The notes: generated by a model from the letters alone, not told the origin. 64,000 bases of DNA from an uncultured Clostridia bacterium (GCA_934621505.1 CAKTUU010000003.1:18580-82579); one strand, 5' to 3'; shown: positions 7,066 through 60,783, counted from the stretch's first letter. Made by a program: numbers and translations.

Positions 7066-7430
7066 CCCCGTTTTTCCATAGCGCTGCCGAGAAGCGCAAC
7101 GTTTCCTACTCACCTGCAGCTCGCCGGGCGGAAAAGAGCGCAAGGCACCAAAACCGCCCGGTTTTGGAATGAAAAAATCGGAGAGCCGAGGCCCTCCGAT
7201 ACCACCCGGGGATTCAGTCTGTGCATCCCCGCTTTTCCATAGCAGGGATGCTTAGAGCGTTGACAAACACTGGCTTGGTTGCCGCGTCCGCGAACATCGC
7301 TGCGCTTGTTCGCGGGAAAAGGGCTGTAGCACAAGGCTTAGGGGGCGCTGCCCCTAAAACCCTGGCAGGAGGCAATGCCTCCTGCACCTCCGGTTTTTCA
7401 GCAGGCTGTGCGCCCCGTTTTTCCATAGCG
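7066..7430. repeat. complex intergenic repeat region
   Basis: 19-bp direct repeat gccccgtttttccatagcg at 7066-7084 and 7402-7420. A third ttttccatagc hairpin lies at ~7226-7246. One full copy of the ~100-bp three-hairpin palindromic element is at 7283-7391. Additional small hairpins are present (aaaaccgcccggtttt, atcggag..ctccgat). Confidence 0.6.
7283..7391 (+). repeat. palindromic intergenic repeat element, copy 1 (MITE/REP-like)
   Basis: Consensus GCG(C/T)CCGCGAACAnCGCTGCGCTnGTTCGCGGGAAAAG..CACAAGGCTTAGGGG.nCTGCCCCTAAAACCCnGGCAGGAGGCAnTGCCTCCTGCACCTCC. Three successive hairpins followed by a T-run. Near-identical copies at 19681-19766, 31623-31765 and 60625-60725 (reverse). Confidence 0.8.
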
Positions 7431-7442
7431 GGGCTGCCTGGC

Positions 7443-10109
7443 TTATTTTTTCTCTCTGGCCCGTTTGGCGTTCAGCAGCGCGTTGGCCGTTTGGCGGGCC
7501 TGCTCCTCCATTTTGGGTTTTGGCGGCTGTTTGGGAGCCACAGAAGGTTTCGGTTTCACGGGTTCCTTCGCGGGCGCGCTCCTTGTCTGCGTCTTGGGCA
7601 GCCAGTCCTCCCAGGGCAGCTTGCGCAGGGCCACGTCCGCAACAAACAGGCATAAAAACGCTATCAGCAGCAGACGCTGCAAGGGCTTTCGCGCAGTCGC
7701 CGAGGCGATGGGCGTGTTCCAGAAGGAGTCCTCCATGGTCAGCATTCGCCCGCCGGTTTGCTGGCACAGCTTTTCCAGGCTGCCATCCGGCTGTACGCGC
7801 AAATCATATTCACTGCTGAAGCCGCGTACTGCTCCCCCCTCCTGAGTGCGAATGGTTTCCTCCCCCTGTTTTTGGGTGACATAAACGGCGTACGCGCCCT
7901 CCAACGCGGCGGAAGTTTCCGCCTGATACTGACCGGGGGCCGTTTCCGTCAGGGGCAGGCTGGTTTCCGTTCCGTCCGGCGACAGCACCGTAGCCTGGGT
8001 TTGCAGGGCATCGTCATTTTCCACCTGATAGGTGATTTGCAGCTTGCCGTTTGCCACGTCCGCCGTTAGCGTGCCCTCCCGTTCCTCGTTAGCCAGCACC
8101 TTGGCCACCATGCCCCCAAAGAAGGCCGGAGCCTGCTGCCATTGCAAAAAGCTGCCGGTCCATGCGCCTTCCGTGTCGCTTGTCCAGGCTATCACCTTGC
8201 CCGCTCCCGCATTCCACCAGGCCAGCAAGGGTTCGTCCGTATCGCTGACCAGGGATACGGTGGCGGTGGCCCTTTCGGCGCAGGTCAGGTAGCCGTCCAG
8301 CGTGGGAAAGCCGTCAAAATCCGTCAGGCTGCCGCTTTCCGTAATAATGGGGGTAAAGGTGCGGTTTTGCACATAGCTGCCGCTGACCAGCATGGTTTCC
8401 TTGGTGAAAATTTTGGGAATGTTGTCAAACTCGCCTACCGAATAGCAGCGTCCCCCGCCCAAAGCCGCCAGCTGGGCCATCAGGCCCGTATCCGCGTCCG
8501 CGCCTACCGATACGGTGGTCAGAGTGATTCCCGCGCTTTTCATGGCCTGCACAATATTTTGAAAGCCGTTGTCCCCGGGCTGGCCGTCCGACAGGAAGAT
8601 GACATGCTTCTGAGGGGTTTGCGCCGCCGCCAGAACGCGATAGGCTTCGTCCAGCGCGGAATAAAACGCCGTGCCGCCGTCGGCCCGCAGGGTGCCAATC
8701 TGGTTTTGAATCGCTTCCACATCCGTTACGTTTTGAAAGGGCACCACCCACTTGGCCGTATCGTCAAAGCCAATCACGCCGATATTGTCCTGAGCCGTCA
8801 GCACCTCCGCGGCGCTCATGGCCGCCTCCTTGGCCACCTCAATGCGGGTGGAGCCAAACTGGCCGGAGGTCATGCTGCCGGATTTATCAATACAGATGAC
8901 CAGCGACAGGGCGGGCATGCGCAGCTTTTCCTTTACGTCCATGGTAACGGGCAGCAGTTCTTCCAGCAGGGTGCCCCGGTAGCCGCCCAGGGCGTAGCTC
9001 TGGTCGCCGCCCAGCACGCACAGGCCCTTGCCCAGACTTGTAACGGCGGCGCTTAGGGCCTGCCACTGCTTTTCCGTTGCGGAATCGTAATCCACATTGT
9101 TCAAGATCACAGCGTCGTAGGACAAATAGCCGTCCGCCGCCAGCGGCATTTCCGCCGGGGTCAGGGACGTTACCTCCATCCCCGCCGCCGCAAACAGGCT
9201 TTGAACACCGGCGCTTTCGCCAATCAGCGCCACATTGGGCGCGCCCAGCACATGCACATAGGCAAAAGCGCTGTTGTTGCGGGGCTGGGTATCCGCGTCG
9301 CAGTTGATTTGCACGCCATAGGTGACCACGCCGGTTTTGCTGGCGGTATCGGTAAAGGCAAAACGGTTTTCGCCCTTTTGCAGGGATACCTGCCGGGTGG
9401 CGGTGGGCGTGCCGTTCTGGTACAGCACAAGGGTTCCTTCCATATCCGCGCTGGCGTCAATCACCACCTGAATGGGAATGCTTTGCCCCTGACGGCTTTC
9501 CGCTGGCACATTCAATTCCGTGGCCTGCGCGTCCGGTCCGTTTTCCCCGGCCAGCGCCAGCACGTCCACCTTCATTCCCTGGGCGGAAAGCATATCCATT
9601 GTCGCCTGGGACACGCTGGCCTTGCCGTCGGTTACGGCGGTGATTCCACCGGTGCCGGACGATGTTAAGGCCGCGGCCAGACGCAGCGCCCCGTCCAAAT
9701 CCGTACCTTCGCCGCCGGTTTGGGTATGCAGTCCTGTAAAGCTGGGAGCCGCGCTCACCGGCGTTTCCACCATGGCGTCAGCCCCAAAGGCCAGTACGCC
9801 CGCCTGCTGTCCTTTGGGCAGCTGAGCGATTTCCTGTATGGTTTTCTGCTCCATCTGGGCACGCAAAGGCTTGGCGGAATCCGACGCGTCCAGCAGCACC
9901 CAGCGGGTAGCCGCTCCGGAAGCCAGCAGCACCGACGGGGCGGCCACAGCCAGCGCCAGCAGGCTGATTACCAGACAGCGTACCGCCCGCGTAACCCGCC
10001 GCTTTAAGGAGCGATTTTTCAGTCCATATCTTCGGTCAATCCAGCAAACGGCCGCTACGCCCACAGGAATGAGCAGCAGCGCCCAAAGCCGTTCAAAGTC
10101 AAGCCCCAC
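7443..10109 (-). CDS. BatA-like membrane protein with von Willebrand factor A domain (888 aa)
   Basis: GTG start at 10109 with RBS GGGAGGTG. N-terminal two-TM BatA-type anchor. vWA/MIDAS motif VICIDKSGSMTSG. C-terminal TM plus Lys/Pro-rich tail. Its start overlaps the stop of the upstream vWA gene. Confidence 0.7.
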   Translation of the reverse strand: MGLDFERLWALLLIPVGVAAVCWIDRRYGLKNRSLKRRVTRAVRCLVISLLALAVAAPSVLLASGAATRWVLLDASDSAKPLRAQMEQKTIQEIAQLPKGQQAGVLAFGADAMVETPVSAAPSFTGLHTQTGGEGTDLDGALRLAAALTSSGTGGITAVTDGKASVSQATMDMLSAQGMKVDVLALAGENGPDAQATELNVPAESRQGQSIPIQVVIDASADMEGTLVLYQNGTPTATRQVSLQKGENRFAFTDTASKTGVVTYGVQINCDADTQPRNNSAFAYVHVLGAPNVALIGESAGVQSLFAAAGMEVTSLTPAEMPLAADGYLSYDAVILNNVDYDSATEKQWQALSAAVTSLGKGLCVLGGDQSYALGGYRGTLLEELLPVTMDVKEKLRMPALSLVICIDKSGSMTSGQFGSTRIEVAKEAAMSAAEVLTAQDNIGVIGFDDTAKWVVPFQNVTDVEAIQNQIGTLRADGGTAFYSALDEAYRVLAAAQTPQKHVIFLSDGQPGDNGFQNIVQAMKSAGITLTTVSVGADADTGLMAQLAALGGGRCYSVGEFDNIPKIFTKETMLVSGSYVQNRTFTPIITESGSLTDFDGFPTLDGYLTCAERATATVSLVSDTDEPLLAWWNAGAGKVIAWTSDTEGAWTGSFLQWQQAPAFFGGMVAKVLANEEREGTLTADVANGKLQITYQVENDDALQTQATVLSPDGTETSLPLTETAPGQYQAETSAALEGAYAVYVTQKQGEETIRTQEGGAVRGFSSEYDLRVQPDGSLEKLCQQTGGRMLTMEDSFWNTPIASATARKPLQRLLLIAFLCLFVADVALRKLPWEDWLPKTQTRSAPAKEPVKPKPSVAPKQPPKPKMEEQARQTANALLNAKRAREKK

Positions 10110-11874
10110 GCCTGCTCACCTCCCATTCAAGCACGCATAAAACAAACAATAGCAGCACCGCGGCCAGCGTCCATTCCCGGTAGCCGTAGCCCGCGGCCAC
10201 GGTTTCTTCCTTTTCAGAGGGCTGGGCCACCGTGCGGGTATCGCTTTCCGCCGCCGGGGCATGTAATGTAAACCGGGTCTGGCGGACGGTTCCGTCCTCC
10301 ATTTCCTCCTGCAGGGTATACACGCCGATCGCCTGTGTATTTTCCAGCCTGCCGCCATTCAGCGGCACGGTCTGTCCGTCCGGGGTCAGCACGGTAACCT
10401 TTTGACTGCGCACATCCGCATCAATCGCTACGCTCTCGCCGCAGGCGGCGCTTTCCACCCGGGCGGACGGCTCCGGCAGCAGGTAGGTCAGCAGGTTTTG
10501 AATCAGCACGGGAAAATCCGCCTTCAGGGGCAGATTGCTGTCATGCACGTCAAACCCCAGCACAGCCGCCCGGTGGGCCGCGGTTTCCTGAACGGCCAGC
10601 AGGCTTTGCCCGCCCGCCTCCAGCACGGCTGTTCCGCCGGTCAGCGGCGTGGCGGAGCGGATGGCGATATCGTTCAGCAGCAGATTTTCACAAAGGGTTC
10701 TGGCGGTATCGCCGGAGGCCGCCCGCAGAGCGCCGGGCTGGCTGACCGCATCGCCGGGGGTAATATCCAGCACGGCCTTCTGCGGATGAACCGCCAGAAT
10801 GGCCCCGCTTTCCGGCAGGGTTTCCGGCAGCACGCCGTCATACACATACAGGTCGTACTGGCCGGGCTGGTCCACATCCTGAGGGGAGGCCAAATCCACC
10901 GTCAGGTTGGTGTTCAGCGCCAAAGCCTTTTCCAGAAACACGTTGCCGTCCGTCACCAGCAGCGCCGTGCGCCGGGTTTGGGCCGGCCTGACCGCGTAGC
11001 GGTCGTTATCCACATCCAGCGCGTCCGAAGCAGCGATGTGGACGCGAACCTGTTGCGCGGTTTCCGGAATAGCAAAGCGCACGCCGGTTTGGCCGTCCTT
11101 GTCCAGACTGGCGGTGCGCACGTCGCACAGTTCCCCATCCGCATAGCATTCCAGCGTCACTTCACAGGCGGGGCCGTAGTTCTGGACCCTTGCAAAGGCC
11201 AGAGCGCTTTCCGGCTGCATGGTCGCGTCCAGCAGCGCGCGGTTTGGCATGCTTTCGCCTGCGGCACGCAGGCTTCCGTCCTGCAGGGTCAGGCTCGCGT
11301 CGTCGGTAAACACATAGATTTGCAGGTTTTGCAGGTCCTGACGCAGAGCGCGGGCCAATGCCAGCGCGCCCTCCATGTCGCTGCCGCCGTTTTGCGCCTG
11401 CAGGTTCTGGATAACCCGGCGCGCCTGTCCATGGTCGCTTGAGCGGGACAACAGCTGCTGAAAGCTGGAGCCGGCGGCCAGCACCGTCACCGGGGTTGTT
11501 TCTCCCAGTCTGTCCAGCAGGGTCAGGGCCTGATCCTTTGCCTCGTCCAGGCGGCTTTGTCCCTGACTGTTTTGGGTCTGCATGCTGGCGGACAGGTCTA
11601 CAATCAGCACCGCCTCGCCCTCAGAGCCGCCAAGGGTGGCGGGGCGCATCAGGCACAGGGTCACCAGCAGCACCGTCAGAATTTGCAGCCACAGCAGCAG
11701 TCTGCTTTTCAGCCGCTGAAAGGGCTTGCTTTGCGGCGCGTCGCTTTCCATGCGCCGCCACAGCAGCAAGCTGGGAACCGTTTGCCTGCGGGCCTTTTTT
11801 TTCAGCACCCACAGCAAAATCACCGGCACAAGCGCCAGCAGCGCCCATGCTCCGGCAGGATAGAGCCATTGCAT
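10099..11874 (-). CDS. BatA-like membrane protein with vWA domain (591 aa)
   Basis: N-terminus MQWLYPAGAWALLALVPVILLWVLKKKARR has the same architecture as BatA_N. vWA motif VLIVDLSASMQT. RBS AGAGGAAA. Confidence 0.75.
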   Translation of the reverse strand: MQWLYPAGAWALLALVPVILLWVLKKKARRQTVPSLLLWRRMESDAPQSKPFQRLKSRLLLWLQILTVLLVTLCLMRPATLGGSEGEAVLIVDLSASMQTQNSQGQSRLDEAKDQALTLLDRLGETTPVTVLAAGSSFQQLLSRSSDHGQARRVIQNLQAQNGGSDMEGALALARALRQDLQNLQIYVFTDDASLTLQDGSLRAAGESMPNRALLDATMQPESALAFARVQNYGPACEVTLECYADGELCDVRTASLDKDGQTGVRFAIPETAQQVRVHIAASDALDVDNDRYAVRPAQTRRTALLVTDGNVFLEKALALNTNLTVDLASPQDVDQPGQYDLYVYDGVLPETLPESGAILAVHPQKAVLDITPGDAVSQPGALRAASGDTARTLCENLLLNDIAIRSATPLTGGTAVLEAGGQSLLAVQETAAHRAAVLGFDVHDSNLPLKADFPVLIQNLLTYLLPEPSARVESAACGESVAIDADVRSQKVTVLTPDGQTVPLNGGRLENTQAIGVYTLQEEMEDGTVRQTRFTLHAPAAESDTRTVAQPSEKEETVAAGYGYREWTLAAVLLLFVLCVLEWEVSRRGA

Positions 11875-11890
11875 CGTTTTTCCTCTTTCA

Positions 11891-12745
11891 TCAGGCGATC
11901 AGGCCGCTTCGGCTCAGTTCGCGCAGCATTTGTTCCTCAAAGGGGGTTTGGGGAATCAAAAACACATGGGTAACGCCGTGGGACAGGCAAAAGTCATGGG
12001 CGCTCTGCACATAGGCCCGCGCCGTTTCCCGGTAGCGCTTCAGGGTATCGTAATCGGCGGACAGAATCAGCTTTTCATCCGTTTCACTGTCGCAAAGCTC
12101 CACCACGTCCTCCAGCCGGGGTTCCCACTCCGTTTGGGCAAGCAACTGAACCACGCTGACCTCCTGCTTGCGGTACAGCAGGGAGGTCAGGGCCCGGTCA
12201 TAGCCGTCCTCGGAAAGCAGGTCGCTGACCAGAATGGTAACGCCCCTGCCCTGTGGCAGGCTGATTTTTTCCACGCAGTCTCCCAGTCTGGTCTGCCCGT
12301 TCGGGGTCAGGCCCTCCAGAAAATCGGAAAGCTCCGGGTAGCTTTGCCTGCCCTGCAGAGGGCGGGTATGCGCCCCATCCCGGCCCAAGGCGTACGCCGT
12401 TACCCGGTCGCCGCCGCACAGGCACAGATAGCCCAGCATTTGAACCAGCTGCCTGGCCGCCTCCCATTTTTCAAAGCCCATGGAAGCGCTGACATCCAGC
12501 AGCAGATGCACCCGCTGCTCCTGTTCCTCCATGAACAGCTTCAGGAATAAACGTTCAAACCGGGCGTAGGCGTTCCAGTCGATTCGGCGCACATCGTCGC
12601 CCAGCGCGTATTCCCGAAAGTCGGAAAATTCCACGCTGCTGCCCAGCGCTTTGGACCGTCTAAGCCCGCCGGAGCCGCCGCTGGCCGGGTGGCGCATGCG
12701 CAGGGCCAGCGTGTCCAGCCGCCGCAAAAAGGCATCGGATAACAC
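11891..12745 (-). CDS. DUF58 family protein (MoxR-associated)
   Basis: GTG start with RBS AAGGAAGGAG. The motif SVEFSDFREYALGDDVRRIDWNAYARFERLFLKLF...LLLDVSASMGF is typical of DUF58 proteins, which usually follow MoxR ATPases. Confidence 0.8.
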   Translation of the reverse strand: MLSDAFLRRLDTLALRMRHPASGGSGGLRRSKALGSSVEFSDFREYALGDDVRRIDWNAYARFERLFLKLFMEEQEQRVHLLLDVSASMGFEKWEAARQLVQMLGYLCLCGGDRVTAYALGRDGAHTRPLQGRQSYPELSDFLEGLTPNGQTRLGDCVEKISLPQGRGVTILVSDLLSEDGYDRALTSLLYRKQEVSVVQLLAQTEWEPRLEDVVELCDSETDEKLILSADYDTLKRYRETARAYVQSAHDFCLSHGVTHVFLIPQTPFEEQMLRELSRSGLIA

Positions 12746-12760
12746 GTTTTTTCTCCTTCC

Positions 12761-13741
12761 TTAGCCCCGGGGCAGGGTCTTGAGCAAATGGTCGATCACG
12801 CCCTCCACGGTAACGCCCTGCGCCACGCCCTCAAAGCTGAGCGCAATGCGGTGCCGCAGACAGGCGGGAGCCACAGCCTCAATGTCCTCAAAGGCCACGT
12901 TATAGCGCCCGTGCATCAGCGCCCGCACCCGTGCGGTGGCAATCAACGCCTGCGCCGCGCGGGGGCTGCCGCCGAAGCGCACGCACTTTTGCACCAGCTC
13001 CGGGCTGTCCTGAAGCTCGGGATGGGTCGCCAGCACCAGCCGCAGGGCAAAATCCTGTACGGCCTGGGCAATGGGCACATCCTGGGCCACAGCCCGCATC
13101 TGCAGCAGAGTATCCGCGTTTGCCACCGCCTGAGCGTGACAGGTTTGCGGCCGGGTGGTCAGGCCCACAATCTGGCCCAGTTCCTCCAGACTGGGAAAAT
13201 CCACCTGAATTTTCAGCATAAAGCGGTCCAGCTGGGCCTCCGGCAGGGGGTAGGTGCCCTCCTGCTCCATGGGATTTTGCGTGGCCAGTACAAAGTAAGG
13301 TTCGCTCAGCTGATGGGTCTCCCCCGCCACGGTGACGGAATGCTCCTGCATGGCTTCCAGCAGGGCAGCCTGGGTTTTGGGCGTGGCGCGGTTGATTTCA
13401 TCCGCCAGCACAATGGAGGCAAACAGCGGGCCTTCCCGGAAACGAAACTCGTTGCCGCTGTCGGTTTTGACAATGATGTTGGTACCGGTAATATCGGCGG
13501 GCATCAGGTCCGGGGTAAACTGAATGCGGTTAAAGGGCATGTCAAACACCTGGGACAGGGTGCGCACCAGACGGGTTTTGCCCAGACCGGGCACGCCCTC
13601 CAGCAGCACGTTGCCACCGGCCACCAGCGCGGTCAGCAGCTGCTCAATCACGTTTTTCTGGCCGATGATTTCCTTGCCGATTTCCGTTTGAATTTCCTCG
13701 ATTTGCCGGGAAAAGGCCTCAATCTGCTCCTGTTGAATCAT
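12761..13741 (-). CDS. MoxR-family AAA+ ATPase
   Basis: Start trimmed to the Met at 13741 (MIQQEQIE), which has RBS AAAGGAG. Walker A GVPGLGKT and family-typical MoxR motifs (IIGQKNVIEQLLTALVAGGNVLLEG, ADEINRATPKTQAALLEAMQE) are present. Confidence 0.9.
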   Translation of the reverse strand: MIQQEQIEAFSRQIEEIQTEIGKEIIGQKNVIEQLLTALVAGGNVLLEGVPGLGKTRLVRTLSQVFDMPFNRIQFTPDLMPADITGTNIIVKTDSGNEFRFREGPLFASIVLADEINRATPKTQAALLEAMQEHSVTVAGETHQLSEPYFVLATQNPMEQEGTYPLPEAQLDRFMLKIQVDFPSLEELGQIVGLTTRPQTCHAQAVANADTLLQMRAVAQDVPIAQAVQDFALRLVLATHPELQDSPELVQKCVRFGGSPRAAQALIATARVRALMHGRYNVAFEDIEAVAPACLRHRIALSFEGVAQGVTVEGVIDHLLKTLPRG

Positions 13742-13757
13742 GGCTTGCTTTCTCCTT

Positions 13758-15182
13758 TTATTGTAAAGCGTTAAAGTAATCCTGCACCCACCGCTGGGCA
13801 TAGGCGGGCAGGGCGGCGTTCTGCACGGCCTGCACCTCGGCCTGGCTGTATTGGGTGATGGCCTGGCTGTAGGGCACGCTGCCGTTCAGGCTGCCTGTTC
13901 CGGAGCCGATTTCCACTTCCTGCACATCGCCCTGCCCCATTTCGCCGCTGTCGCTGACGGCGTCGCCAGCGCCTCCCAGACGGATGGGGTCATAAATGCT
14001 CTCGTATTCCGCGGTTTTCTTTTCCGGGTCGGCGCTGCCGGGCTGCTGCCTGATCGGGTTTTTGCCGCTGACGCCCCCGTCCTTGTCGGAGGAGCCCAAG
14101 CTGGCCCCGCCGCCCTTGCCGTCCTTGCCCTGACTGGCGGACGAGCCAGTTTCGCTGCCCTGACCCATTTGGGAGCCCTGCCCGGACTGGGCGGCCGCGG
14201 CCCGCGCCATAGCGGCCAGCGCCATGGCCTGCGCCGCGGACATGCTTTGTCCCTTCGAGGCGTTTTGCAAAAGCTGCATGGCCTGCTGCAAATCCCCCGC
14301 CTTCAGCGCCTGCGACGCGCTGGCAAGCATATCGCCCACGTCGCCCGCCTGCTGGGCCGCCTGATTCAGCCGGTCCGCCGCGTCCGTCTGCTCCAAAGCT
14401 TCCTGCGCCGCGGCGGTATCCTGATTTTCCAGCGCCGCCGCCAGACTGTCCAGCCCGGCGTTTTTCATCGCGTCTAAGGCCTGACTTGCCGTGCGCTGCT
14501 GCATTTTTTCAATTCTGCGTTCCGTCTGATCCACTGCCTCCAGCGCGTCCCGGCGCTGCTGGGCGTCACGAAGGTTTTGGCTTAATTCCTTCAGCAGCTT
14601 ACGGGGTTCCGGCGTTTGCGTCTGTTTTTCATCCAGATTGTCGGCGGCCTGATCCACCTTATCCGCCTGAGCGGTCATGTCTTTACGGAACTGCTCCCGC
14701 GCCTGCAAAACCTGCGCCTGCGGGTTGGAAATCAAAAAGCTGAGGCCCGTCAGCGCCAGACATACGGCCACGCCGGCCCAAACCAGCGCCGGGGCGCGAA
14801 AGCGCAGCATCCGTTTGGGCTCAATGCTCCGCAAGCTTTCAATGGTATCCTGCCGCTGCATCTGGGCCATGGGGGTATCGTCCCCCTGCAGCATCAGGGC
14901 GGTCTGGGCACGGGCCATCAGGCCCAAAGCATCCGCCTGACGGGCGGCGTTTACATCTTTAACAGGCAGGCACAGCGCGGCCAGGGCAAAAAGCGCCGGG
15001 CCCGCAGCAGCGGCGGCTGCGCCCCACCAGACCGCGTTTTCAAAGGGAAATAAAAAGCTGGCCAACCGAATCAGCACAATGCACACCGCCCCCGCCAGCA
15101 GGCCGTAAGCCGCCCATAAAAAGACCCGCTGAGCACGCATGCGGCGCTTTACCGGCGCAAGGGCTTCTTTCAGCTCACGCAT
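13758..15182 (-). CDS. hypothetical membrane-anchored coiled-coil protein (474 aa)
   Basis: Two or three N-terminal TM segments, then a long Ala/Gln/Glu-rich predicted coiled coil and a Gly/Ser/Gln low-complexity stretch. RBS AGAGGGGGAAAG. Part of the MoxR operon. Confidence 0.55.
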   Translation of the reverse strand: MRELKEALAPVKRRMRAQRVFLWAAYGLLAGAVCIVLIRLASFLFPFENAVWWGAAAAAAGPALFALAALCLPVKDVNAARQADALGLMARAQTALMLQGDDTPMAQMQRQDTIESLRSIEPKRMLRFRAPALVWAGVAVCLALTGLSFLISNPQAQVLQAREQFRKDMTAQADKVDQAADNLDEKQTQTPEPRKLLKELSQNLRDAQQRRDALEAVDQTERRIEKMQQRTASQALDAMKNAGLDSLAAALENQDTAAAQEALEQTDAADRLNQAAQQAGDVGDMLASASQALKAGDLQQAMQLLQNASKGQSMSAAQAMALAAMARAAAAQSGQGSQMGQGSETGSSASQGKDGKGGGASLGSSDKDGGVSGKNPIRQQPGSADPEKKTAEYESIYDPIRLGGAGDAVSDSGEMGQGDVQEVEIGSGTGSLNGSVPYSQAITQYSQAEVQAVQNAALPAYAQRWVQDYFNALQ

Positions 15183-19528: not shown

Positions 19529-19680
19529 TGGTGTTCCTCCTTGCCGCGGCGCTTTGTGCCCGCACTTATGTAACGCAAAATCCGTGGATTATCTTCCCAA
19601 CGGCTCCACAAAAAATGGAATGTTGTTCAGGCTGCTGAAAAACCCTAGTATGAGAACACTCGTCCACGAACATGACTACG

Positions 19681-19766
19681 CTGGTTCACGGGAAATACGT
19701 TACGCTACAAGGCTTAGGGGGTCCGCCCCTAAAACCCCGGCAGGAGGCAGTACCTCCTGCACCTCC
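19681..19766 (+). repeat. palindromic intergenic repeat element, copy 2
   Basis: ctacaaggcttagggggtccgcccctaaaaccccggcaggaggcagtacctcctgcacctcc plus T-run. Left arm partially diverged. Lies between the divergent MoxR/ABC operon and zur. Confidence 0.75.
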
Positions 19767-19797
19767 ACTTTTTCAACAACCTGAGTTGTTTTTTCTA

Positions 19798-30472: not shown

Positions 30473-31570
30473 TTACAGCTTTTGCTGCAAGTAATCCAGC
30501 CAGCGTTCCAGGGCCGGCTGGGAAAAATCCTTCAGCGCCCGGGCGTACAGGTCATACCCTGCCGGGTCGTTTTTCCGCATCCAGGCAAGGGATTTCTTGG
30601 GACCCAGATAGCGCCTGCCGCAAGCATCGCAGTAAATTTCCAGGCTGTCCATCAGCACCCAATGCCAGCGGTAGAAGCCCTCCGCGTCTGCCCGCAGGGA
30701 ACGGCGCTGCATCTTGCGGCACCAGTCAATCTCCTCCTGCACTTCCTCCCGGGTGGGAAACGGCTGCCTTTCCATGGTTTCCAGCACGCTGTTTTTTAGC
30801 TTTGCGCCCATTCCGTCCCGGTCTATCACAATCGCGCTGTCAAAAACCTGCACAAAATCCATCGGGTCATAGGACGTTGCAAAGGTTTCCGGCGGATAGA
30901 CAAAAACATCTAGCACCGTACCCGCAACCGTGGAAGTATCATGCTTTTTAGGCCCGTTGGCAATGACCAGCGCGTCAAAATCGCTATGGGCGTTTTGGCT
31001 TCCATCCGCAAAGGAACCGTATGTCATCACCGCCAAAGGCTGATATTGCCGCTTCAGATAATCCAAAATCGCCGCAGGCCGCAGGTCCTTTTGCCTCAAA
31101 ACGCCCCGGTACAGACCGGCCTGACAGCTGCCCGCCGCCCTAAAGCCAAGGCTTTCGTAATACCGGGAAAGGGCCTGGTTGTCCTGGGCGGAGTCAAGGC
31201 GCAGGTACTGCCTGCCTTTTTCAAGGGCATAGGCTTCCGCGTATCGCAGAAAAACGGCCCCGGCTCCTTTCGTCCCTGTTTGCGACACAAAGTTATGCAC
31301 ATAAAGGGCTGGCTGGTCGTCCTGCCAGCGGTCGTCCCGCTCCTTTAGCACAGCGCTGCAAACAAGCATTCCATCTTCTTCCAGTACAAAAACATGCCCC
31401 TTCTGCCGTTCCTGCTCATAATAGGTCTGAGGGTATATCTGGTCATACTGCATCACGTTCCATTGGCGAATGCCTTGCTCGTCCATCCAGGCCATTCGCT
31501 CCCGAATCATGGCAAACAGCCGCGGGATTTCCTGCCGGGTTATCGGACGAAAGATAAAAGAATCAGTCAT
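30473..31570 (-). CDS. GNAT N-acetyltransferase fused to a nucleotidyltransferase (KNTase/Lnu-like) domain
   Basis: The ORF-track model (30473..31810) is N-terminally extended through repeat copy 3. True start is MTDSF at 31570 with RBS GAAAGGG. The GNAT fold occupies residues ~1-160. The NTase motif GSFADGSQNAHSDFDALVI is followed by a helical C-terminal domain. Confidence 0.7.
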   Translation of the reverse strand: MTDSFIFRPITRQEIPRLFAMIRERMAWMDEQGIRQWNVMQYDQIYPQTYYEQERQKGHVFVLEEDGMLVCSAVLKERDDRWQDDQPALYVHNFVSQTGTKGAGAVFLRYAEAYALEKGRQYLRLDSAQDNQALSRYYESLGFRAAGSCQAGLYRGVLRQKDLRPAAILDYLKRQYQPLAVMTYGSFADGSQNAHSDFDALVIANGPKKHDTSTVAGTVLDVFVYPPETFATSYDPMDFVQVFDSAIVIDRDGMGAKLKNSVLETMERQPFPTREEVQEEIDWCRKMQRRSLRADAEGFYRWHWVLMDSLEIYCDACGRRYLGPKKSLAWMRKNDPAGYDLYARALKDFSQPALERWLDYLQQKL

Positions 31571-31607
31571 ACTTAGCCCTTTCCAGAAACAATTTTGAAA
31601 GGGCTGC

Positions 31608-31804
31608 CTGATGAACAGACAGCCCCAACCTGTCGAAAAACCCCTGTTGGCCTCCAGCGCCCGCGAACAGCGCTTCGCTGGTTCGCGGAAAAAGTGCTGC
31701 GGCACAAGGCTTAGGGGCTCTGCCCCTAAAACCCCGGCAGGAGGCAGTGCCTCCTGCACCTCCTTTTTTTGGACGACCTGCGGTCTTTCTGATGAACAGA
31801 CAGA
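31608..31804 (+). repeat. palindromic intergenic repeat element, copy 3, with flanking 15-bp direct repeats
   Basis: ctgatgaacagacag at 31608-31622 and again at 31790-31804. The 167-bp insert between them contains the consensus element (31664-31765). Confidence 0.8.
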
Positions 31805-31813
31805 CCGCAATGA

Positions 31814-48452: not shown

Positions 48453-48642
48453 GGCTGCCTCCTGTTTGTTTGAAATTTAACGAATCAATCTATTACAATT
48501 TAGGTATTATATCCCGTTTGAACGGGAATTGCAAGACGATTTTTTTTCGATTTATACCGTTTCTTTGCCCTTTACAAAGCGGTTTGGGCAAAGTTATACT
48601 ACAAAAGATATCTGAGGATTCTCAGAATGGAGGAAATTGCAT

Positions 48643-50309: not shown

Positions 50310-50315
50310 ACGTTT

Positions 50316-51095: not shown

Positions 51096-51110
51096 AAGGA
51101 GGCGGCAACC

Positions 51111-53692: not shown

Positions 53693-53700
53693 TTTGCGCA

Positions 53701-53734
53701 AAACCCTCGGAAGGAGCTTCTCCTTCCGAGGGTT
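53701..53734. terminator. bidirectional hairpin terminator
   Basis: aaaccctcggaaggag-cttc-tccttccgagggtt followed by tttctgtttg. Sits between convergent genes. Confidence 0.6.
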
Positions 53735-53748
53735 CGTTTCTGTTTGTC

Positions 53749-54909
53749 TTATTCCGCCAGCGTCTGGCCCCGACTGGGCCAGTGCAGCAGAATTTTTTCC
53801 AGTTCAAAGCCATAATCCCGTTTCAGCGCGTCCTGGGCCAGCACCAGCGGGACGGCGGACAGGGTTTGCCCTTCCCATACCAGCCGCGCCTCCCCCACCT
53901 GATCGCCTTCGGTCATGCCCGCCTCCAGACTGTCCGGCATATCCAGTTCCAAAACAGGCGTTGTCCCTTTGGGCACCGGGGCGCACAGTTTTCCGGCGGC
54001 GCATACATAAACCGTTTCCTGCCGTCCTTCATGCACCGGCAGCGCCCGCAGGGTTTCCCCCTGATCCAGCGCGGCAAACAGCTCGTAGCGGTCAAAGCCC
54101 ATGTCCATCAGCCGGGCGGCCTCGTCAAACCAGTCGCCGCAGTTCAGCACCACGCCGATCACTTCCATTCCATCCCGGCGTGCGCCAAATACCAGACACC
54201 GGCCCGCCGCCCGGGTAAAACCGGTTTTAATGCCGGTTGCTCCCTCATAGCTGGACAGCAGCCGGTTTTTGTTGTTCAAAATGCGCTGATAGCTGCGGCC
54301 CTCCCAGGGGATGGACGCGCGCCGGGTGCTGACGATCTCTCGAAACAGCGGATAGGTCATGGCCTGCCGGGCAATCAGGGCCAAATCGCGGGCCGTTGTG
54401 TGATGCCCCTGGGCGGGCAGCCCGTTGGGGTTGACAAACACCGTGTCCTGACAGCCCAGTTCCGCCGCCCGCCGGGTCATTTGCCGGCAAAAGGTATCCA
54501 CATCCCCGCCCAGATGCTCTGCAATGGCTACCGCGGCGTCGTTTCCGCTGGCCAGCATCAGCCCGTACAGCAGGTCCTTCATGGCAATCCGCTCGCCCAG
54601 GTTCAAATAGATGCTGGTGCCCGGTACGCCATAGGCGTTGCGCCCAACGGTTACCACATCGTCCAGCCGGCCGGATTCCAGCACCATCAGCGCCGTCATC
54701 ACCTTGGTGGTGGAGGCCATGGGCAGGGGTTCCTCCGCGTTATGGCACAGCAGCACCTTGCCTGTTTCCCGCTCTATCAGCACGGCGGCACGGGCGCTGC
54801 TGTCCACCTGCTCGCCCTCCTCGGCCCCGCAGGGGCGGGGAAGGGTCAGCAGGGCGCAAAACAGCAGCATCGCCAGGGCGCGCAGCTTTCCCATCAGGCG
54901 GCGTTTCAT
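53749..54909 (-). CDS. D-alanyl-D-alanine carboxypeptidase (S11 peptidase, PBP5/DacB-like)
   Basis: Signal peptide. SxxK motif (ASTTKVMT), SGN motif (ASGND), KTG motif (IKTGFT). Confidence 0.85.
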   Translation of the reverse strand: MKRRLMGKLRALAMLLFCALLTLPRPCGAEEGEQVDSSARAAVLIERETGKVLLCHNAEEPLPMASTTKVMTALMVLESGRLDDVVTVGRNAYGVPGTSIYLNLGERIAMKDLLYGLMLASGNDAAVAIAEHLGGDVDTFCRQMTRRAAELGCQDTVFVNPNGLPAQGHHTTARDLALIARQAMTYPLFREIVSTRRASIPWEGRSYQRILNNKNRLLSSYEGATGIKTGFTRAAGRCLVFGARRDGMEVIGVVLNCGDWFDEAARLMDMGFDRYELFAALDQGETLRALPVHEGRQETVYVCAAGKLCAPVPKGTTPVLELDMPDSLEAGMTEGDQVGEARLVWEGQTLSAVPLVLAQDALKRDYGFELEKILLHWPSRGQTLAE

Positions 54910-55319
54910 TGCAGATCCTCGTCAAAGGAAAGCTGCTTTTCCCCATTCTGGTTCAGGTTTTCCAAAAGCTGAGGCAGCAGCTCCACCATGCGTTCCATCG
55001 CGCCGCTGGTCTGGGCGGGCAACACCTTTACCGTGCCCTCCCCCACCACCAGAAAGCCCACCGGCTGCACCGACACACCGGCCCCAGTGCCTCCCGCAAA
55101 GGGGAATACGTCCGTAGGGACAGGGTGGTTTTTGCCATCCTCCACCGCGTATTCTCCGCCGCCCGCCACAAAGCCCAAACTGACCTTGGAAATGGGAATG
55201 ATGGTGGTGCCGTGGGTGCCGCTGACCGGCGCGCCCACCACCGTGTTTACATCCACCATGCTGCGAATGCTCTGCATGGTGGTTTGCATCATGTTGTCAA
55301 TGGGATGCTGCTGTTGCAT
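54906..55319 (-). CDS. ytfJ: sporulation protein YtfJ (GerW family)
   Basis: The ORF-track model (54906..55352) starts at the first Met. Start trimmed to the Met at 55319, which has an AGGAGG RBS. The conserved stretch [25 protein letters not shown] is typical of YtfJ. Confidence 0.75.
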   Translation of the reverse strand: MQQQHPIDNMMQTTMQSIRSMVDVNTVVGAPVSGTHGTTIIPISKVSLGFVAGGGEYAVEDGKNHPVPTDVFPFAGGTGAGVSVQPVGFLVVGEGTVKVLPAQTSGAMERMVELLPQLLENLNQNGEKQLSFDEDLQ

Positions 55320-55818
55320 AGCCGTCCTCCTTGCTTTTGACCCTTTTGGCATATTCCAGATACAGAATCATGCCCGCCATGGCTAGACTGCCCAGCCGGG
55401 TAAAAATCATACATTCCAAATACCCTTCCGGGGTCGTGCGCTGAAAATCCGGCTCCACACGGCCATGCAAAACGGTAAGCCCGCACAGGCGCAGGGTTTG
55501 CAGCGCCGTGCACAGGGCCCCGCAGGCCAGCGCCGTAGCCGCCGCATCCTTCGTGCCCAGTCTGAGGCGAATCACCGCCCGGCGTACCTTCAGCCCGGCG
55601 GCCTTTAGAATGGCCTTGCGCCTGCTCAAAAACGCCAGCAGCCAGTCCAGACTCTGGTCCTTTTTTTTACCCTTTGCCCGGGGCATGGGAATGGGCAGGC
55701 CGCCTATCCGTATTTTCAGATGAAAGGCAAACCCATCGTTCCATTCCAGCCGCGCCTGGGCCTCTGCCGGCGTAATGGCCAGCGCCATCAGCGCGAACAG
55801 CCAAAAATACGGGTTCAT
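55297..55818 (-). CDS. DUF2953-like sporulation-associated membrane protein (YtfI-like)
   Basis: 173 aa. Signal/TM N-terminus. Located upstream of ytfJ as in the Bacillus ytfI-ytfJ operon. RBS GGGGGAAG. Confidence 0.5.
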
Positions 55819-55978
55819 TTTAGCTTCCCCCTTTTGCGCTGGTATGCCCGAAAAGGGGGCGATTCATGTAAAACTCGTAAAAATTTACGGTTTCTTCATT
55901 TTTCAGTTATACATTCTCCATGGGTATGGGGTATGCTTGATACCGTATCAAGAATTGTCAGCCAGGAGGCATTTTGAC

Positions 55979-57766
55979 ATGGGCAAGACCATCGGTATTG
56001 ATTTAGGCACCACCAATTCCTGCGTGGCTTTTATGGAAAACGGCGACCCCGTCGTCATCCCGAACGCGGAGGGCGGACGCACCACCCCGTCCGTGGTGGC
56101 TTTTACCAAGGACGGCGAACGTATTGTAGGCGCGGCGGCCAAGCGTCAGGCCGTTACCAATCCCGGGCGCACCATCTCCTCCATCAAACGGGAAATGGGC
56201 ACGGATAACCGGGTAACCATCGACGGCAAGAGCTATACACCTCAGGAAATCAGCGCCATTATCCTGCAAAAGTTGAAGCAGGACGCGGAAGCCTATCTGG
56301 GAGAGGCCGTCACCGACGCGGTGATTACGGTGCCCGCTTACTTCAGCGACGGCCAGCGGCAGGCCACCAAGGACGCGGGTAAAATCGCCGGGCTGAACGT
56401 GCTGCGCATCATCAACGAGCCAACCGCCGCCGCTTTGGCCTACGGCATGGATAAGAGCGGCGCGCAGAAAATTATGGTCTTTGACCTGGGCGGCGGCACC
56501 TTTGACGTATCCATTCTGGACATCAACGCCGACGTCATCGAGGTGCTGGCCACGGCGGGCAACAACCGTCTGGGCGGCGATGATTTTGACAACTGCGTGG
56601 CCAACTATCTGGTGGAGTGCTTCCAAAAGCAGGAGCACATCGACCTGACCCGGGACACCACCGCCATGAGCCGCATCCGGGAGGCTGCGGAGAAGGCCAA
56701 GATTGAACTGAGCTCCGCCACCAGCGCCAGCGTCAACCTGCCCTTCCTGTATTCCGATCATAACGGGGCCAGGCATTTGGAAATGACCCTGACACGGGCC
56801 AAGTTTGACGAACTGACCGCGCACCTGGTGGAAGCCACCATGGGCCCGGTGAAGCAGGCCATGGACGACGCCGGTCTGACCCCCAGCGACCTGAGCCGTG
56901 TGCTGCTGGTAGGCGGCTCCACCCGTATTCCCGCGGTGCAAAGCGCCGTCAAGCGCTTTACCGGCAAGGAGCCCAGCAAGGACATCAACCCGGATGAGTG
57001 CGTAGCCATGGGCGCGTGTTTGCAGGGCGGCGTGCTTAAGGGCGAGGTCAAGGGCCTGCTGCTGCTGGACGTAACGCCGCTGTCCCTGGGCATTGAAACC
57101 ATGGGCGATGTATTCAGCCGCATTATCGACCGCAACACCACCCTGCCGGTAAAGCGCAGTCAGGTGTTTACCACTGCGGCCAATTTCCAGACTAGCGTGG
57201 ACATTCACGTTTTGCAGGGTGAGCGGGAAATTGCCAGCTGCAACAAAACCCTGGGCAGGTTCCGCCTCAGCGGCATCCGCCGGGCGCTGCGGGGCGTGCC
57301 GCAGATTGAGGTCACCTTCTCCATCGACGCCAACGGCATTGTGAACGTATCCGCCAAGGATCTGGGCACCGGCAAATTCCAGGAAATTACCCTGACCCAA
57401 AGCTCCAACATGTCCTCCGCCGAGATTGACCAGGCCATCCGGGACGCGGAGCGCTACGCCGCCGAGGACTCCCTGCGCCGCAAGAGCGCCGAACTGCACA
57501 ACCACGCCGAGGAATTGCTGTATCAGGCCAAGAGCGCCCAGAAGAAGCTGAATCCCGAGGACAAGGAGCGCATTGAAGCCCTGCGGAAAAAGGTCAAATC
57601 CGCCCTGGACAGCAAGGACGATCAGGCGCTGAAAAACGCCACGGAGGAGCTGACCCAGGCGCTGCAGGCGGTAGGCCGCTTTGTGGACAACACGGCTTTC
57701 TCCGCCGAGGACGGGGCCATGGACGCGGACTTTACCTCCAGCGATAACAACAACAGCAGTCACTAA
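55979..57766 (+). CDS. Hsp70 family chaperone (DnaK paralog, 595 aa)
   Basis: The ORF-track model (55775..57766) has an N-terminal extension. Start trimmed to [18 protein letters not shown], which has RBS AGGAGG. Family-typical motifs [24 protein letters not shown]. No grpE or hrcA adjacent and no CIRCE element upstream. Confidence 0.9.
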
Positions 57767-57778
57767 GGAGGCCGGGCC

Positions 57779-58645
57779 TTGTTTGGTTATGTCACCATTG
57801 CCGCTGGCAGCCTGACGCAGGAGCAGCAGGACCGCTACCGGGCCGCCTACTGCGGCTTGTGTCACGAACTGGGGGCCAGGTACGGCTCGGTTGGGCGGCT
57901 GACCCTCAGCTTTGACAGCACGTTTCTGTATCTGCTGCTCAGCTCCCTGTACGAGCCGGATGAGCAGCGGGGCACGGCCCGCTGCCTGCCTCACCCGTTC
58001 AAGCCCCATCCTTGGGTGCGCAATTCGCTGGCCGCCTACTGCTGCGATATGAACATCGCCCTGGCCTACCACAAATGCCTGGACGACTGGCAGGACGACC
58101 ACAGCCTGACCGGCAGGGCGGAAGCCGCGCTGCTGCGTAAGGATTACGAACGCATTGCCGCCTTTTACCCGGAAAAATGCCAGACGCTGGAAAGCTGTCT
58201 TAAACAAATTGCCGTTCTGGAAAAGTCGGATTCTCCTTCGCTGGACCGGCTGGCCAACCTGACCGGTCAGATGCTGGGGACGCTGTACCGCTATCAGGAC
58301 GACATGTGGGCGGATACCCTTCAGCAGGTGGGCGAGGGGCTGGGACGTTTCATCTACCTGATGGACGCTTACGACGACCTGGACCGGGACCAACGGCGCA
58401 AGCGGTTTAACCCCCTGCTGCCCTACCGGGATCAGCCGGATTACGAAAGCTTTGTAAAGGAAAGCCTGACCCTGCTGATTGCCGAATGCACCAACGCGTT
58501 TGAAACATTACCCCTGGTAAAAGATATGGACATTTTGCGCAATATCCTGTATGCTGGTTGCTGGTCCCGCTACGAGCAGAAACGCATCCGGCGGGAGCGT
58601 AAGCAAGGCGTGCCGGAACGCACGCATAAGGAGGACGGGGTATGA
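57779..58645 (+). CDS. hypothetical protein co-operonic with Hsp70 and a J-protein (possibly DUF5685-like)
   Basis: TTG start 7 nt after RBS AAGGAGG. 288 aa, soluble. Overlaps the downstream J-protein gene start. Confidence 0.5.
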
Positions 58646-59409
58646 GAGACCCCTATGAGGTTTTGGGCGTGCCCCACGGCGCGTCGGATGATGAAATCAA
58701 GTCGGCCTACCGCAGGCTGGCCAAAAAATACCATCCGGATTTGAACGATGGCTCCGCCGAGGCGGAAGCCAAAATGAAGGAGGTAAACGAGGCCTATACC
58801 CTGCTGATCAAGCACAAGGACCAGTACCAGAGCGGCGGTCAAAGCGGCTATGGCAGCCAGGGCTACAGCGGACAGAGCTACGGCGGCTACAGCGGGCAGG
58901 GCTACGGCGGACAAGGGTATGGCAGTCAGGGCTACGGCAACCGCGGCGGTTTTGACTTTGGCGGCTTCGGCTTTGATTTTGAGGATTTGTTTGGGGGCGG
59001 CCAGCGCCGCAATTACCAGACCAGCTCGTATACCGAGAACGACCCCCAGCTGAAAAGCGCCGCCCAGGCCGTGCTTTCGGGCCGGTATCAGGAGGCGCTG
59101 AACCTGCTGACCGGCGTGCAAAACCGCAAGGCGGCCTGGTATTACTGGAACGCCCGGGCCAATATGGGTCTTGGCAACCGCATCGCCGCGCTGAACAACG
59201 CCCGCACCGCCAGCAATATGGCCCCGGACGAGCCCGCCTTTCGCGAGCTGCTGGCCCAGCTGAACGCGGGTGGACAGGCCTATGGTCAGCGGGGCGCACA
59301 GGGCGGCTTTGGTTCCTATCTATGCGCCAATCCCTGTCTGACCCTGATCGCGGCCAATCTGCTGTGCAACTGCTGCTGCGGTTACGGCCGCGGCTTTTAT
59401 TGCTGCTAA
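58642..59409 (+). CDS. J-domain protein with G/Y/S-rich low-complexity region and Cys-rich C-terminus
   Basis: N-terminal J domain with an HPD motif ([16 protein letters not shown]). [26 protein letters not shown] repeats. C-terminal [15 protein letters not shown]. Confidence 0.8.
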
Positions 59410-59434
59410 ACCATTGTGAAAAGAGGTTATCACC

Positions 59435-59878
59435 ATGTCCTTTTGGGAAAAAATCAAGCAGGCGGCCCGCCGTTTTATGGCTGGCCGTCACGGAGTGGAC
59501 CAACTGTCCATGGCGCTGCTGTGGACCGGCCTGGCCTGCTATCTTTTGGGATCGATTATCGGGTCCATTCAGGTTCCCGTCCTGCCTGTTCTGGGCTTTC
59601 TGCTAAGCGTGCTGGGCTTTGCGGCGTATGTGTTTTGCGTCTTTCGCATGTTTTCCCGCAACAACGAAAAGCGCAGCGATGAAAATCGCCGCTATGTGGC
59701 CGCCGCTGAAAAGCGGCGCACCCTGCGCCGTCAGGCCAAGGTAAGATTTCAAAATCGTAAAAAGTACAAATACTTTAAGTGCCCCGGCTGCAAAGCCTGG
59801 CTGCGCGTTCCCCGCGGAACCGGCGTGGTTACGGTCACTTGCAGCCGCTGCCACAACAGCTTTACCCAGAAGGCCTGA
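59435..59878 (+). CDS. membrane protein with C-terminal zinc-ribbon
   Basis: Two TM helices, then CPGC...CSRC (4-Cys ribbon). RBS AAAGAGG. Last gene of the Hsp70 module. Confidence 0.55.
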   Translation: MSFWEKIKQAARRFMAGRHGVDQLSMALLWTGLACYLLGSIIGSIQVPVLPVLGFLLSVLGFAAYVFCVFRMFSRNNEKRSDENRRYVAAAEKRRTLRRQAKVRFQNRKKYKYFKCPGCKAWLRVPRGTGVVTVTCSRCHNSFTQKA

Positions 59879-59882
59879 TATT

Positions 59883-59910
59883 TGCTTTTTTGCAAAGCTA
59901 TGCTATAATG
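59883..59910 (+). promoter_or_regulatory. candidate sigma-A promoter of plsY
   Basis: TTGCTT, 16-bp spacer, TATAAT (59905-59910). Confidence 0.35.
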
Positions 59911-59959
59911 ATGGATGTTTTTATAACATACGCTAAATCGCAGAGGGGGGGCCTCATTG

Positions 59960-60586
59960 ATGAAGATTCTGCTTACGTTGCTGACGGCTGCAATCAGCTA
60001 CCTGCTGGGCTGCTTTTCCACCGGCATTACCCTGTCCAGCGCGCAGGGGGTGGATATTCGCAAATTCGGCAGCCATAACACCGGCGCCAGCAACATGCTG
60101 CGGGTAATGGGCACCAAGAATGGCCTGGCAACCTTTATTGGCGACTTTGCCAAGGCCATGCTGGCCTGTCTGGCCGGTTCGCTGCTTTTACCCGGCGCTA
60201 CCTTCGGCATCGATCGCTTCGGCACGCTGCTGGCGGGTCTGTGCGCCATTATCGGCCATAACTGGCCCGTGTTCTACGGCTTTAAGGGCGGCAAGGGCGT
60301 GGCCTGCTCCGTAGCGGTGATTCTGTTTGTGGATCCCCTGCTGGGCGGCATTTCCATTTTGCTGTGTCTGGCCGTTATCGCCATTACCCGCTACATCAGC
60401 GCGGGCAGCATGACCATGCTGCTCAGCTTTGTGTTGCTGGTGCTGATCTTCCGCTGGGGCAACTGGCCGCTGTGTCTGTTCGCGGTCATTCTGCTGGCCC
60501 TGTGCGTGCTGCGCCACCGGGCCAATATCAAGCGCCTGCTGAACGGCACGGAAAACAAAATCGGCAACAAAGTCAAAGCCAAATAA
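59960..60586 (+). CDS. plsY: glycerol-3-phosphate acyltransferase (acyl-phosphate dependent)
   Basis: Family-typical motifs GSHNTGASN and NWPVFYGFKGGKGVA. Five TM. ATG at 59960 follows a TTG at 59957. Confidence 0.85.
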   Translation: MKILLTLLTAAISYLLGCFSTGITLSSAQGVDIRKFGSHNTGASNMLRVMGTKNGLATFIGDFAKAMLACLAGSLLLPGATFGIDRFGTLLAGLCAIIGHNWPVFYGFKGGKGVACSVAVILFVDPLLGGISILLCLAVIAITRYISAGSMTMLLSFVLLVLIFRWGNWPLCLFAVILLALCVLRHRANIKRLLNGTENKIGNKVKAK

Positions 60587-60592
60587 GCGCCT

Positions 60593-60783
60593 TCGCGGGC
60601 GCTTTCAGCCTGCTGAAAAAATCGGAGGTGCAGGAGTCACTGCCTCCTGCCAGGGTTTTAGGGGCAGCGCCCCTAAGCCTTGTGCCACACCTCTTTTCCC
60701 GCGAACCAGCGCAGCGTTGTTCGCGGGCGCGGCATCCAAGCCGCTGTTTGTCAACGATCTATAAGCGCCTTCGCGGGCGCTTT
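60593..60783 (-). repeat. palindromic intergenic repeat element, copy 4 (reverse orientation), inserted into the plsY terminator with 23-bp flanking direct repeats
   Basis: ataagcgccttcgcgggcgcttt at 60593-60615 and at 60761-60783. The second copy continues into TTTTTT, forming an intact rho-independent terminator. The 145-bp insert contains the element (60625-60725). Confidence 0.8.

Follow-up and report, generated by a model that had tools for sequence, protein, structure and literature searches.

Probable IS1182-type miniature transposable elements on duplicated hairpins in an uncultured Clostridia genome

What are the short palindromic repeats that lie between the genes of an uncultured Clostridia bacterium, and how did they come to sit where they do? 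We addressed this question in a 64,000-nucleotide (nt) stretch of its genome (GCA_934621505.1 CAKTUU010000003.1:18580-82579; hereafter the window, with coordinates counted from its first letter), in which an initial annotation had noted four such repeats. These are probably old copies of a ~155-bp MITE (miniature inverted-repeat transposable element) that carries the termini of IS1182-family insertion sequences (ISs), lands on hairpins and duplicates them, and was probably mobilised in trans. The MITE family itself is real, well defined and of the IS1182 type, and does not represent a new kind of system.

The elements and their flanking hairpins

The window holds exactly four copies: an arm-pattern search (three patterns, ≤3 mismatches; shuffles expect 0 matches) recovered the repeats at their annotated positions and added none (Table 1). 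Alignment together with the flanking DNA showed that conservation continues past the annotated limits on both sides, and the real unit is 155-156 bp rather than ~100 bp. It is bounded by imperfect terminal inverted repeats (CAGACTGTCGAAAAA ... TTTTTCAGCAACCTG) that the annotation lacked; the 5′ end is a version of CAGACTGTCGAAAAAC and the 3′ end is TTTTTCAGCAACCTG, each being an imperfect inverted repeat of the other, most clearly in copy 2 (16 nt, 88%). The elements are small (154-157 bp) and have no coding capacity, given that the only open reading frames (ORFs) crossing them are spurious extensions of neighbouring genes. Identity among the window copies is 87-95% in the core (mean, 92%), 56-87% in the left half and 70-90% over the whole element; the initial annotation had given more than 90% for the core. 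As had been described, copies 1, 3 and 4 carry the CGCGAACA..TGTTCGCG arm, which has diverged in copy 2. Copy 3 folds into the three consecutive hairpins of the original description (-71.5 kcal/mol, z -4.6), although hairpin 1 is restricted to one sub-family. The T-run that had been taken for a terminator tail lies at least 8 nt past hairpin 3; it makes up one half of the terminal repeat on the right and is complementary to GAAAAA in the left one. As a separate observation, the plus strand of the right end (7376-7399, 31748-31769 and equivalents) reads CCUCCUGCACCUCC(U/A).UUUUU, like the anti-Shine-Dalgarno tail of 16S rRNA, and the minus strand has two Shine-Dalgarno-like GGAGG motifs.

The most informative feature, absent from the initial annotation, is the duplication of hairpins at the flanks. 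Copies 1, 3 and 4 each lie between direct repeats, 22-29 nt long and particular to the locus, that form stem-loops and have no further occurrence in the window. At copy 4, the repeat (AAAGCGCCCGCGAAGGCGCTTA) is perfect (22/22) and corresponds to the plsY terminator; in a scan for terminator-like structures, the T-tract was displaced from the gene-proximal hairpin by the insertion and kept by the distal one. The flank repeats of copy 3 are identical at 21 of 25 positions, with the same loop and with stems that differ yet are paired in both. At copy 1, the two hairpins (7410-7437 versus 7223-7251) agree at 22 of 25 positions, and the hairpin occurs in three copies because two different elements, MITE copy 1 and a second short element at 7088-7221, sit in one hairpin. 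The left terminus of this second element is of the same type as that of the MITE; it is kin to a longer repeat ('family B') that is abundant in the metagenome-assembled genome (MAG) CAKTUS01, and its internal hairpin scores as terminator-like. Copy 2 differs from the other window copies in having a 6-bp duplication only (GTTGTT). The duplicated hairpins at copy 3 (31601-31625/31782-31806) and copy 1 (7223-7251/7410-7437) have diverged at paired positions and both copies still fold, which hints that both remain under structural constraint.

Related genomes place the window copies within a larger family. A 24-nt core pattern, run once against species-representative genomes, recovered 51 loci: ~45 lie in one Clostridia MAG from the human gut (CAKTUS01) and the others in three MAGs related to it, and many loci sit at contig ends. 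Copies thus exist elsewhere, and with unrelated flanks and an element abundant in other genomes, segmental duplication does not account for the window copies. Complete copies (30 or more) measure 154-157 bp, and both their left end (CAGACTGTCGAAAAACC) and their right end (CACTTTTTCAGCAACCTG) are conserved; the consensus ends agree at 11/16 positions. Among 33 copies in which both ends are present, 25 have a flank duplication of at least 13 nt (median, 19; range, 6-40), and in 22 cases the duplicated sequence folds as a hairpin. As a control, a flank-pair score of at least 10 was reached by 24/33 true pairs and by 6.8% of mismatched pairs. Several duplications are perfect (L023, 30/30; L035, 25/25; L017, 22/22; and window copy 4), and 6-bp duplications mark non-hairpin sites (ATTCAT at L011, and window copy 2). 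Folding at -8 kcal/mol or below was observed for 59/88 MITE flanks versus 30/88 sequences further out.

Direct proof that insertion duplicates the hairpin comes from paralogous empty and filled sites (five each) in a second repeat family of the MAG. Empty sites contain a single hairpin (..TTTCGGC TGCCTTGCGCAGCAAGGCT TTCCTTACGC..), whereas filled sites contain the 155-bp element with the 19-nt hairpin TGCCTTGCGCAGCAAGGCT on both sides. Several other short element families have the same terminus.

Across 43 aligned copies the element is modular, with a nearly invariant right half (partly owing to the search pattern, which lies in that half) and a left half in at least three versions. Insertions are intergenic and, by crude gene calls, 28/36 face at least one gene 3′ end; between co-directional genes their orientation is unbiased (10 sense, 11 antisense). 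Four copies (L018, L024, L035 and L045) carry an inverted hairpin-2 loop, GGGGCGGAGCCCC for GGGGCTCCGCCCC (TCC versus GGA), with the whole palindrome flipped; this is a DNA-palindrome event. Synteny between the MAG loci and the window was detected only at L022 (plsY), where a MITE copy lies just downstream of plsY (L022 6301-6462 versus window 60584-60783; ~80% plsY identity) with a different flank hairpin; this copy seems to have inserted independently into a site of the same kind.

Full-length IS1182-family elements and the proposed mechanism

Viral contigs scanned with the terminus TCAGACTGTCGAAAAA yielded further short elements between duplicated hairpins (L084/L093, 222 bp; L100, 163 bp) and a 1,594-bp IS (L085 199-1792) bounded by CAGACTGTCGAAAAA / TTTTTCTACGGTCTG, with a single ORF of 496 amino acids. 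NCBIfam assigns the encoded protein to the IS1182-family transposases (NF033551, 407.7 bits; cut-off, 270), and Pfam recognises DUF772 and DDE_Tnp_1_6 in it. A likeness of the termini to IS26/IS6 ends was dropped on finding this element. Searching the metagenome with its protein identified ~18 full-length copies (1.56-1.70 kb; 66-92% amino-acid identity), all of which end in CAGACTGTCGAAAAAGTCCAG.. / ..GGGGTTTCTCGACGGTCTG and carry CAGACTGTCGAAAAA at the left end with 0-1 mismatch. The left ends of MITE and IS agree at 15/16 positions.

The ISs also share the insertion habit of the MITE. Flanks touching IS ends fold at -8 kcal/mol or below in 31/34 cases (mean, -17.4 kcal/mol), versus 10/28 for DNA 70 nt further out. 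Three IS copies on longer contigs are bordered by perfect whole-hairpin duplications (L115, 26/26; L117, 30/30; L123, 24/24); L112, inserted where there is no hairpin, has a duplication of 7 bp. One contig (L121) carries, in this order, a hairpin, a MITE-type element of 175 bp, the hairpin again and the IS. Another (L132 ~1417-1906) carries a ~490-bp internally deleted IS1182-family element that keeps both termini and ~91 transposase codons and is an intermediate between IS and MITE. Taken as a MITE, the window element was therefore correctly classified at the outset: it is small and non-coding, has terminal inverted repeats, target-site duplications, dispersed copies and empty and filled sites, and its termini recur on a full-length IS.

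We propose a mechanism in which a full-length element outside the window supplies an IS1182-family DDE transposase in trans. This enzyme would bind both MITE termini, and the MITE would integrate at DNA palindromes, mostly intrinsic-terminator hairpins, recognised by structure. The two strand transfers would hit the palindrome at its outer feet, and extrusion as a cruciform would be the simplest way to bring these feet close together. Gap repair would then copy the whole stem-loop to both sides and so produce duplications of 13-40 nt; a site without a palindrome would gain a duplication of 6-7 bp. We infer the cruciform geometry, the mobilisation in trans and the identity of the mobilising IS lineage. 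The duplication is as long as the palindrome and falls to 6-7 bp where there is none, which argues that the enzyme reads DNA structure and not sequence.

This scheme has a close precedent in IS1272/TnSha1, an IS1182-family system of Staphylococcus that targets hairpins, many of them confirmed terminators, without sequence specificity and in both orientations (PMC4923244, PMC5678879); Furi et al. described the targets as terminators hit in this way (PMC4923244). The transposase family of the full-length element with MITE termini and the targeting of hairpins are shared with IS1272/TnSha1, whereas the window elements are non-autonomous and ~155 bp long. In the model of Wan et al. (pathway b of their Fig. 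13), attack of the 3′ ends on the 5′ feet of the cruciform leads to duplication of the entire stem-loop (PMC5678879), whereas the documented outcome for IS1272 is deletion of the target hairpin (PMC5678879). The elements described here thus provide a clean natural data set: dozens of insertions, short and reliably assembled, which show that target hairpins can be duplicated as a whole by an IS1182-type system. This is the predicted alternative pathway for IS1272, for which only deletion has been documented.

Several points weigh against this interpretation. IS1272 deletes or replaces its target stem-loop and makes no duplication, whereas here the whole stem-loop is duplicated. The L085 element was found by a search with the MITE terminus, so that the match of its ends is a matter of ascertainment, and it is the protein-derived copies that constitute independent evidence. 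Agreement with the IS ends is poorer at the right end of the MITE (12/16) than at its left end. No IS1182-family gene or transposase remnant was detected by tblastn in the window or the 51 MAG loci, and the IS copies come from gut metagenome and viral contigs outside the MITE-bearing MAG loci. Approximately 12/17 full-length IS copies (among L105-L134) have a stem-loop at each end but left and right hairpins that differ, possibly through chimeric short-read assembly across a 1.6-kb repeat or IS-IS recombination, or possibly through a variant of the mechanism. Within the MITE, conservation of the core greatly exceeds that of the left half, which neutral decay alone does not explain. Orthologous empty sites were sought for the window copies and none was found; look-ups with exact proteins (fur, plsY and FAD oxidoreductase) returned the same spacing in every strain, and those with RF3 and pfkB matched no recorded protein.

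Pairs of inverted termini 0.6-4 kb apart in the MAG loci enclose only host genes (MATE transporter, phosphoribosyl pyrophosphate synthetase and two-component system), and a candidate IS end at L008 2556(-) was rejected, as no transposase was present there.

The window copies are ancient, fixed relics. The initial description of the repeat as actively or recently mobile found no support in this genome, given the whole-copy identity of 70-90%, termini with 2-5 mismatches to the consensus and two flank duplications decayed to 84-88%. In all strain contigs whose neighbouring proteins are identical, the spacing around copies 2, 3 and 4 is also unchanged, and the window contains no transposase.

Alternative explanations and the two-hairpin core

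Other origins can be envisaged for intergenic, GC-rich and palindrome-rich repeats in many copies, all features of repetitive extragenic palindromes (REPs) and their paired form (REPIN), which are spread by REP-associated tyrosine transposases (RAYTs) or by the tyrosine/HUH transposase TnpA of IS200/IS605, the partners that had been suggested for this element. REP/RAYT and IS200/IS605 systems have no terminal inverted repeats or target duplications, and REPs depend on a Y1/HUH enzyme, being marked by a conserved palindrome with a tetranucleotide at its 5′ side and by a cognate RAYT gene. The likeness to REP/REPIN-RAYT systems and to bacterial interspersed mosaic elements extends to short length and to clustering and nesting in mosaics, but the MITE has terminal inverted repeats and target-site duplications, its termini match those of an autonomous element with an IS1182-family DDE transposase, no GTAG-type REP signature was seen, and dependence on a Y1/HUH enzyme does not apply; a REP-like origin is thus hardly credible. 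An IS30-family derivative, resembling IS1630 of Mycoplasma fermentans, the classic case of inverted-repeat duplication, would show the same phenotype, since the duplications of IS1630 are inverted repeats of 16-26 bp (PMC2853133, PMC3317919 and the title of Calcutt 1999, cited there). The only full-length elements found with the present termini encode IS1182-family transposases, and no IS30 element with these ends was seen, though no search aimed at IS30 elements was made. IS1630 further differs in its transposase family and termini, in being autonomous and 1.2-1.4 kb long, and in a duplication range narrower than the 13-40 nt observed here, and we regard this derivation as very improbable. 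The paired hairpins might instead predate the insertions, with tandem hairpins such as double terminators serving as preferred landing sites; tandem hairpins are common after genes, and the flank copies do differ at window copies 1 and 3. Such a preference is contradicted by the single hairpin at paralogous empty sites, by the many locus-unique duplications that are perfect over 22-30 nt, by the three hairpin copies that accompany two insertions at copy 1 and by the 6-7-bp duplications at non-hairpin sites, leaving it scarcely any probability.

An explanation that is compatible with the MITE is that the conserved part is a functional structured RNA (a small RNA, an element of the 3′ untranslated region (UTR), a terminator or a Clostridiales-2-like motif) kept for its function. 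The excess of core over left-half identity, the stable fold of copy 3 and the existence of the two-hairpin module outside MITEs with different but paired stems are all in line with this idea, as is the weak full-length similarity between RF02937 and the copy 3 minus strand (window 31692-31771; 21.7 bits, E 0.003). The consensus of this Rfam family, Clostridiales-2 (AAAA.AGGgGGUGCAGGgG...CCcCUGCC.G..UU.AGG), resembles the minus strand of the MITE right end plus hairpin 3, but the match score is far under the gathering threshold (58.6), which none of 18 MAG loci attains, so the MITE is not a member; at gathering thresholds, Rfam returned nothing for the element in the window or in 18 MAG loci. 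The covariation term across the 43 copies is 0.08, inverted hairpin-2 loops are typical of DNA palindromes, orientation relative to genes is unbiased and the left-half differences reflect sub-families rather than decay. In the terminator scan, the internal hairpins of the MITE were not terminator-like, and calls were made only for the duplicated host hairpins and the hairpin of the neighbouring element. Retention as a functional RNA therefore appears improbable, and the proposed role as a terminator or small RNA found no backing in terminator calls, orientation, covariation or Rfam families. The RF02937 motif could in turn represent one end of some related mobile element. Lacking Rfam support, a hammerhead-like CUGAUGA within the flank hairpin of copy 3 was dropped.

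The MITE reading leaves one observation unaccounted for, namely the occurrence of the two-hairpin core outside MITEs. In the MITE this core is near-invariant (..GGGC-NCY-GCCC..(A)CCC-GGCAGG-stem-loop-CCTGC-ACC..), and in the window the module is found only within the four MITEs. Relatives without MITE termini occur in other phyla and in viruses (L081, L082, L188, L201, L215, L240 and L253); their single-stranded parts are conserved (the GGGC-NCY-GCCC apex, CCCGGCAGG and CCTGCACC), and their stems differ and are still paired. On the Gluconacetobacter plasmid pGDIA01 (L081 ~601-660), the version AAGGCTTGAGGGCTCCGCCCTCAAACTCCCGGCAGGAGCCTCGGGCTCCTGCACCTC lies six bases past a stop codon, with the single-stranded parts of the MITE core and compensated changes in both stems. 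Another version lies beside the replication-initiation gene of Tortoise microvirus 76 (L082 ~601-655), and several prophage-like contigs carry versions as well. When viral contigs were scanned with a loose pattern and the matches filtered for both hairpins, ~10 independent versions emerged. Their stems differ while apex (GGGC-NCY-GCCC) and spacing are constant, and their apparent covariation is partly circular given that the filter demanded pairing.

BLAST of the MITE against annotated plasmids and phages gave short core matches only, the significance of which is inflated by the palindromes. The module also forms the first two hairpins of a 136-bp unit with four GC-rich hairpins, found in tandem arrays (Table 1); this unit has no Rfam family and no BLAST match in annotated plasmid or phage collections. 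It is conceivable, though we consider it unlikely, that the core is an independent structured nucleic-acid module with a function of its own, as RNA or single-stranded DNA, and that the MITE is a vehicle that captured and spread it.

Among known MITEs, MITEPye1 of Paracoccus yeei is derived from IS1182, makes 4-bp duplications and has been proposed to be activated in trans (PMC11578231). The element described here is likewise non-autonomous and intergenic, with termini matching an IS1182-family IS; MITEPye1 differs in its 4-bp duplications, its 1-3 copies per chromosome, its alphaproteobacterial host and in that no hairpin targeting has been reported for it. A 2024 review of prokaryotic MITEs mentions no hairpin-duplicating MITE (PMC10969869).

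Gene context in the window

Pfam-supported gene calls confirmed that all copies are intergenic. Long ORFs running into the element are spurious extensions, the true starts being at 6914 for pfkB and 31570 for the GNAT gene; as had been predicted, the frame ..EVQEALPPA.. spuriously lengthens a neighbour, namely ORF 30473-31810, and the third copy-1 hairpin overlaps the false start of ORF 6024-7079 (true pfkB start, 6914). The copy 1 flank hairpin adjoins the stop of the VWA-domain gene (7443, minus strand), and the right flank hairpin of copy 3 adjoins that of the FAD oxidoreductase gene (31814, minus strand).

Table 1 Coordinates of MITE copies, flanking duplications and related features (window positions unless a contig is named)
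Feature	Position	Strand	Details
MITE copy 1	7253..7408	+	156 bp; left end TAGAGCGTTGACAAAC, right end TTTTTCAGCAGGCTG; aligned to 42 other copies
MITE copy 2	19628..19783	+	156 bp; between divergent genes
MITE copy 3	31626..31780	+	155 bp
MITE copy 4	60606..60761	-	156 bp
Third copy of copy-1 hairpin	7062..7087		GCAGCCCCG-TTTTTCCATAG-CGCTGC
Second, different short element	7088..7221	-	~134 bp; starts CAGACTGAATCCCCGGGTGGTATCGGAGGGCC..; inserted into same hairpin as copy 1
Copy 1 left flank hairpin	7223..7251		second hairpin copy, between MITE copy 1 and neighbouring element
Copy 1 right flank hairpin	7410..7437		GCGCCCCG-TTTTTCCATAG-CGGGGCTGC; just past VWA-domain gene stop; -10.7 kcal/mol
Copy 2 target duplication, left	19622..19627		GTTGTT
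Copy 2 target duplication, right	19785..19790		GTTGTT
Copy 3 left flank hairpin	31601..31625		GGGCTG-CCTGATGAACAGA-CAGCCC
Copy 3 right flank hairpin	31782..31806		GGTCT-TTCTGATGAACAGAC-AGACC
Copy 4 gene-proximal flank hairpin	60584..60605		plsY terminator AAGCGCC-TTCGCG-GGCGCTT; overlaps plsY stop (60586)
Copy 4 distal flank hairpin	60762..60783		second plsY hairpin copy, then TTTTTTG
136-bp unit arrays	L155 1-695 and 4125-4391; L167 ~1190-1500 and ~5010-5310		also L157, L237

Each insertion places ~155 bp in a 3′ UTR or intergenic transcript and could change termination or read-through; the predicted present effect of the window copies is likely to be a doubling of the flanked terminators, with the element carried in the 3′ or intergenic transcript. 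For the annotation of uncultured gut Clostridia, the family accounts for spurious ORF extensions, contig breaks and doubled terminators. Between copy 4 and the start of the RF3 gene (prfC), a strong sigma-70-like promoter match (60847-60876, plus strand; TTGACG-18-TATAAT, 11/12) suggests that prfC may have its own promoter downstream of the insertion. One of the MAG loci (L012 600-791) carries a 6S RNA gene (RF00013, 56.2 bits) that is unrelated to the element.

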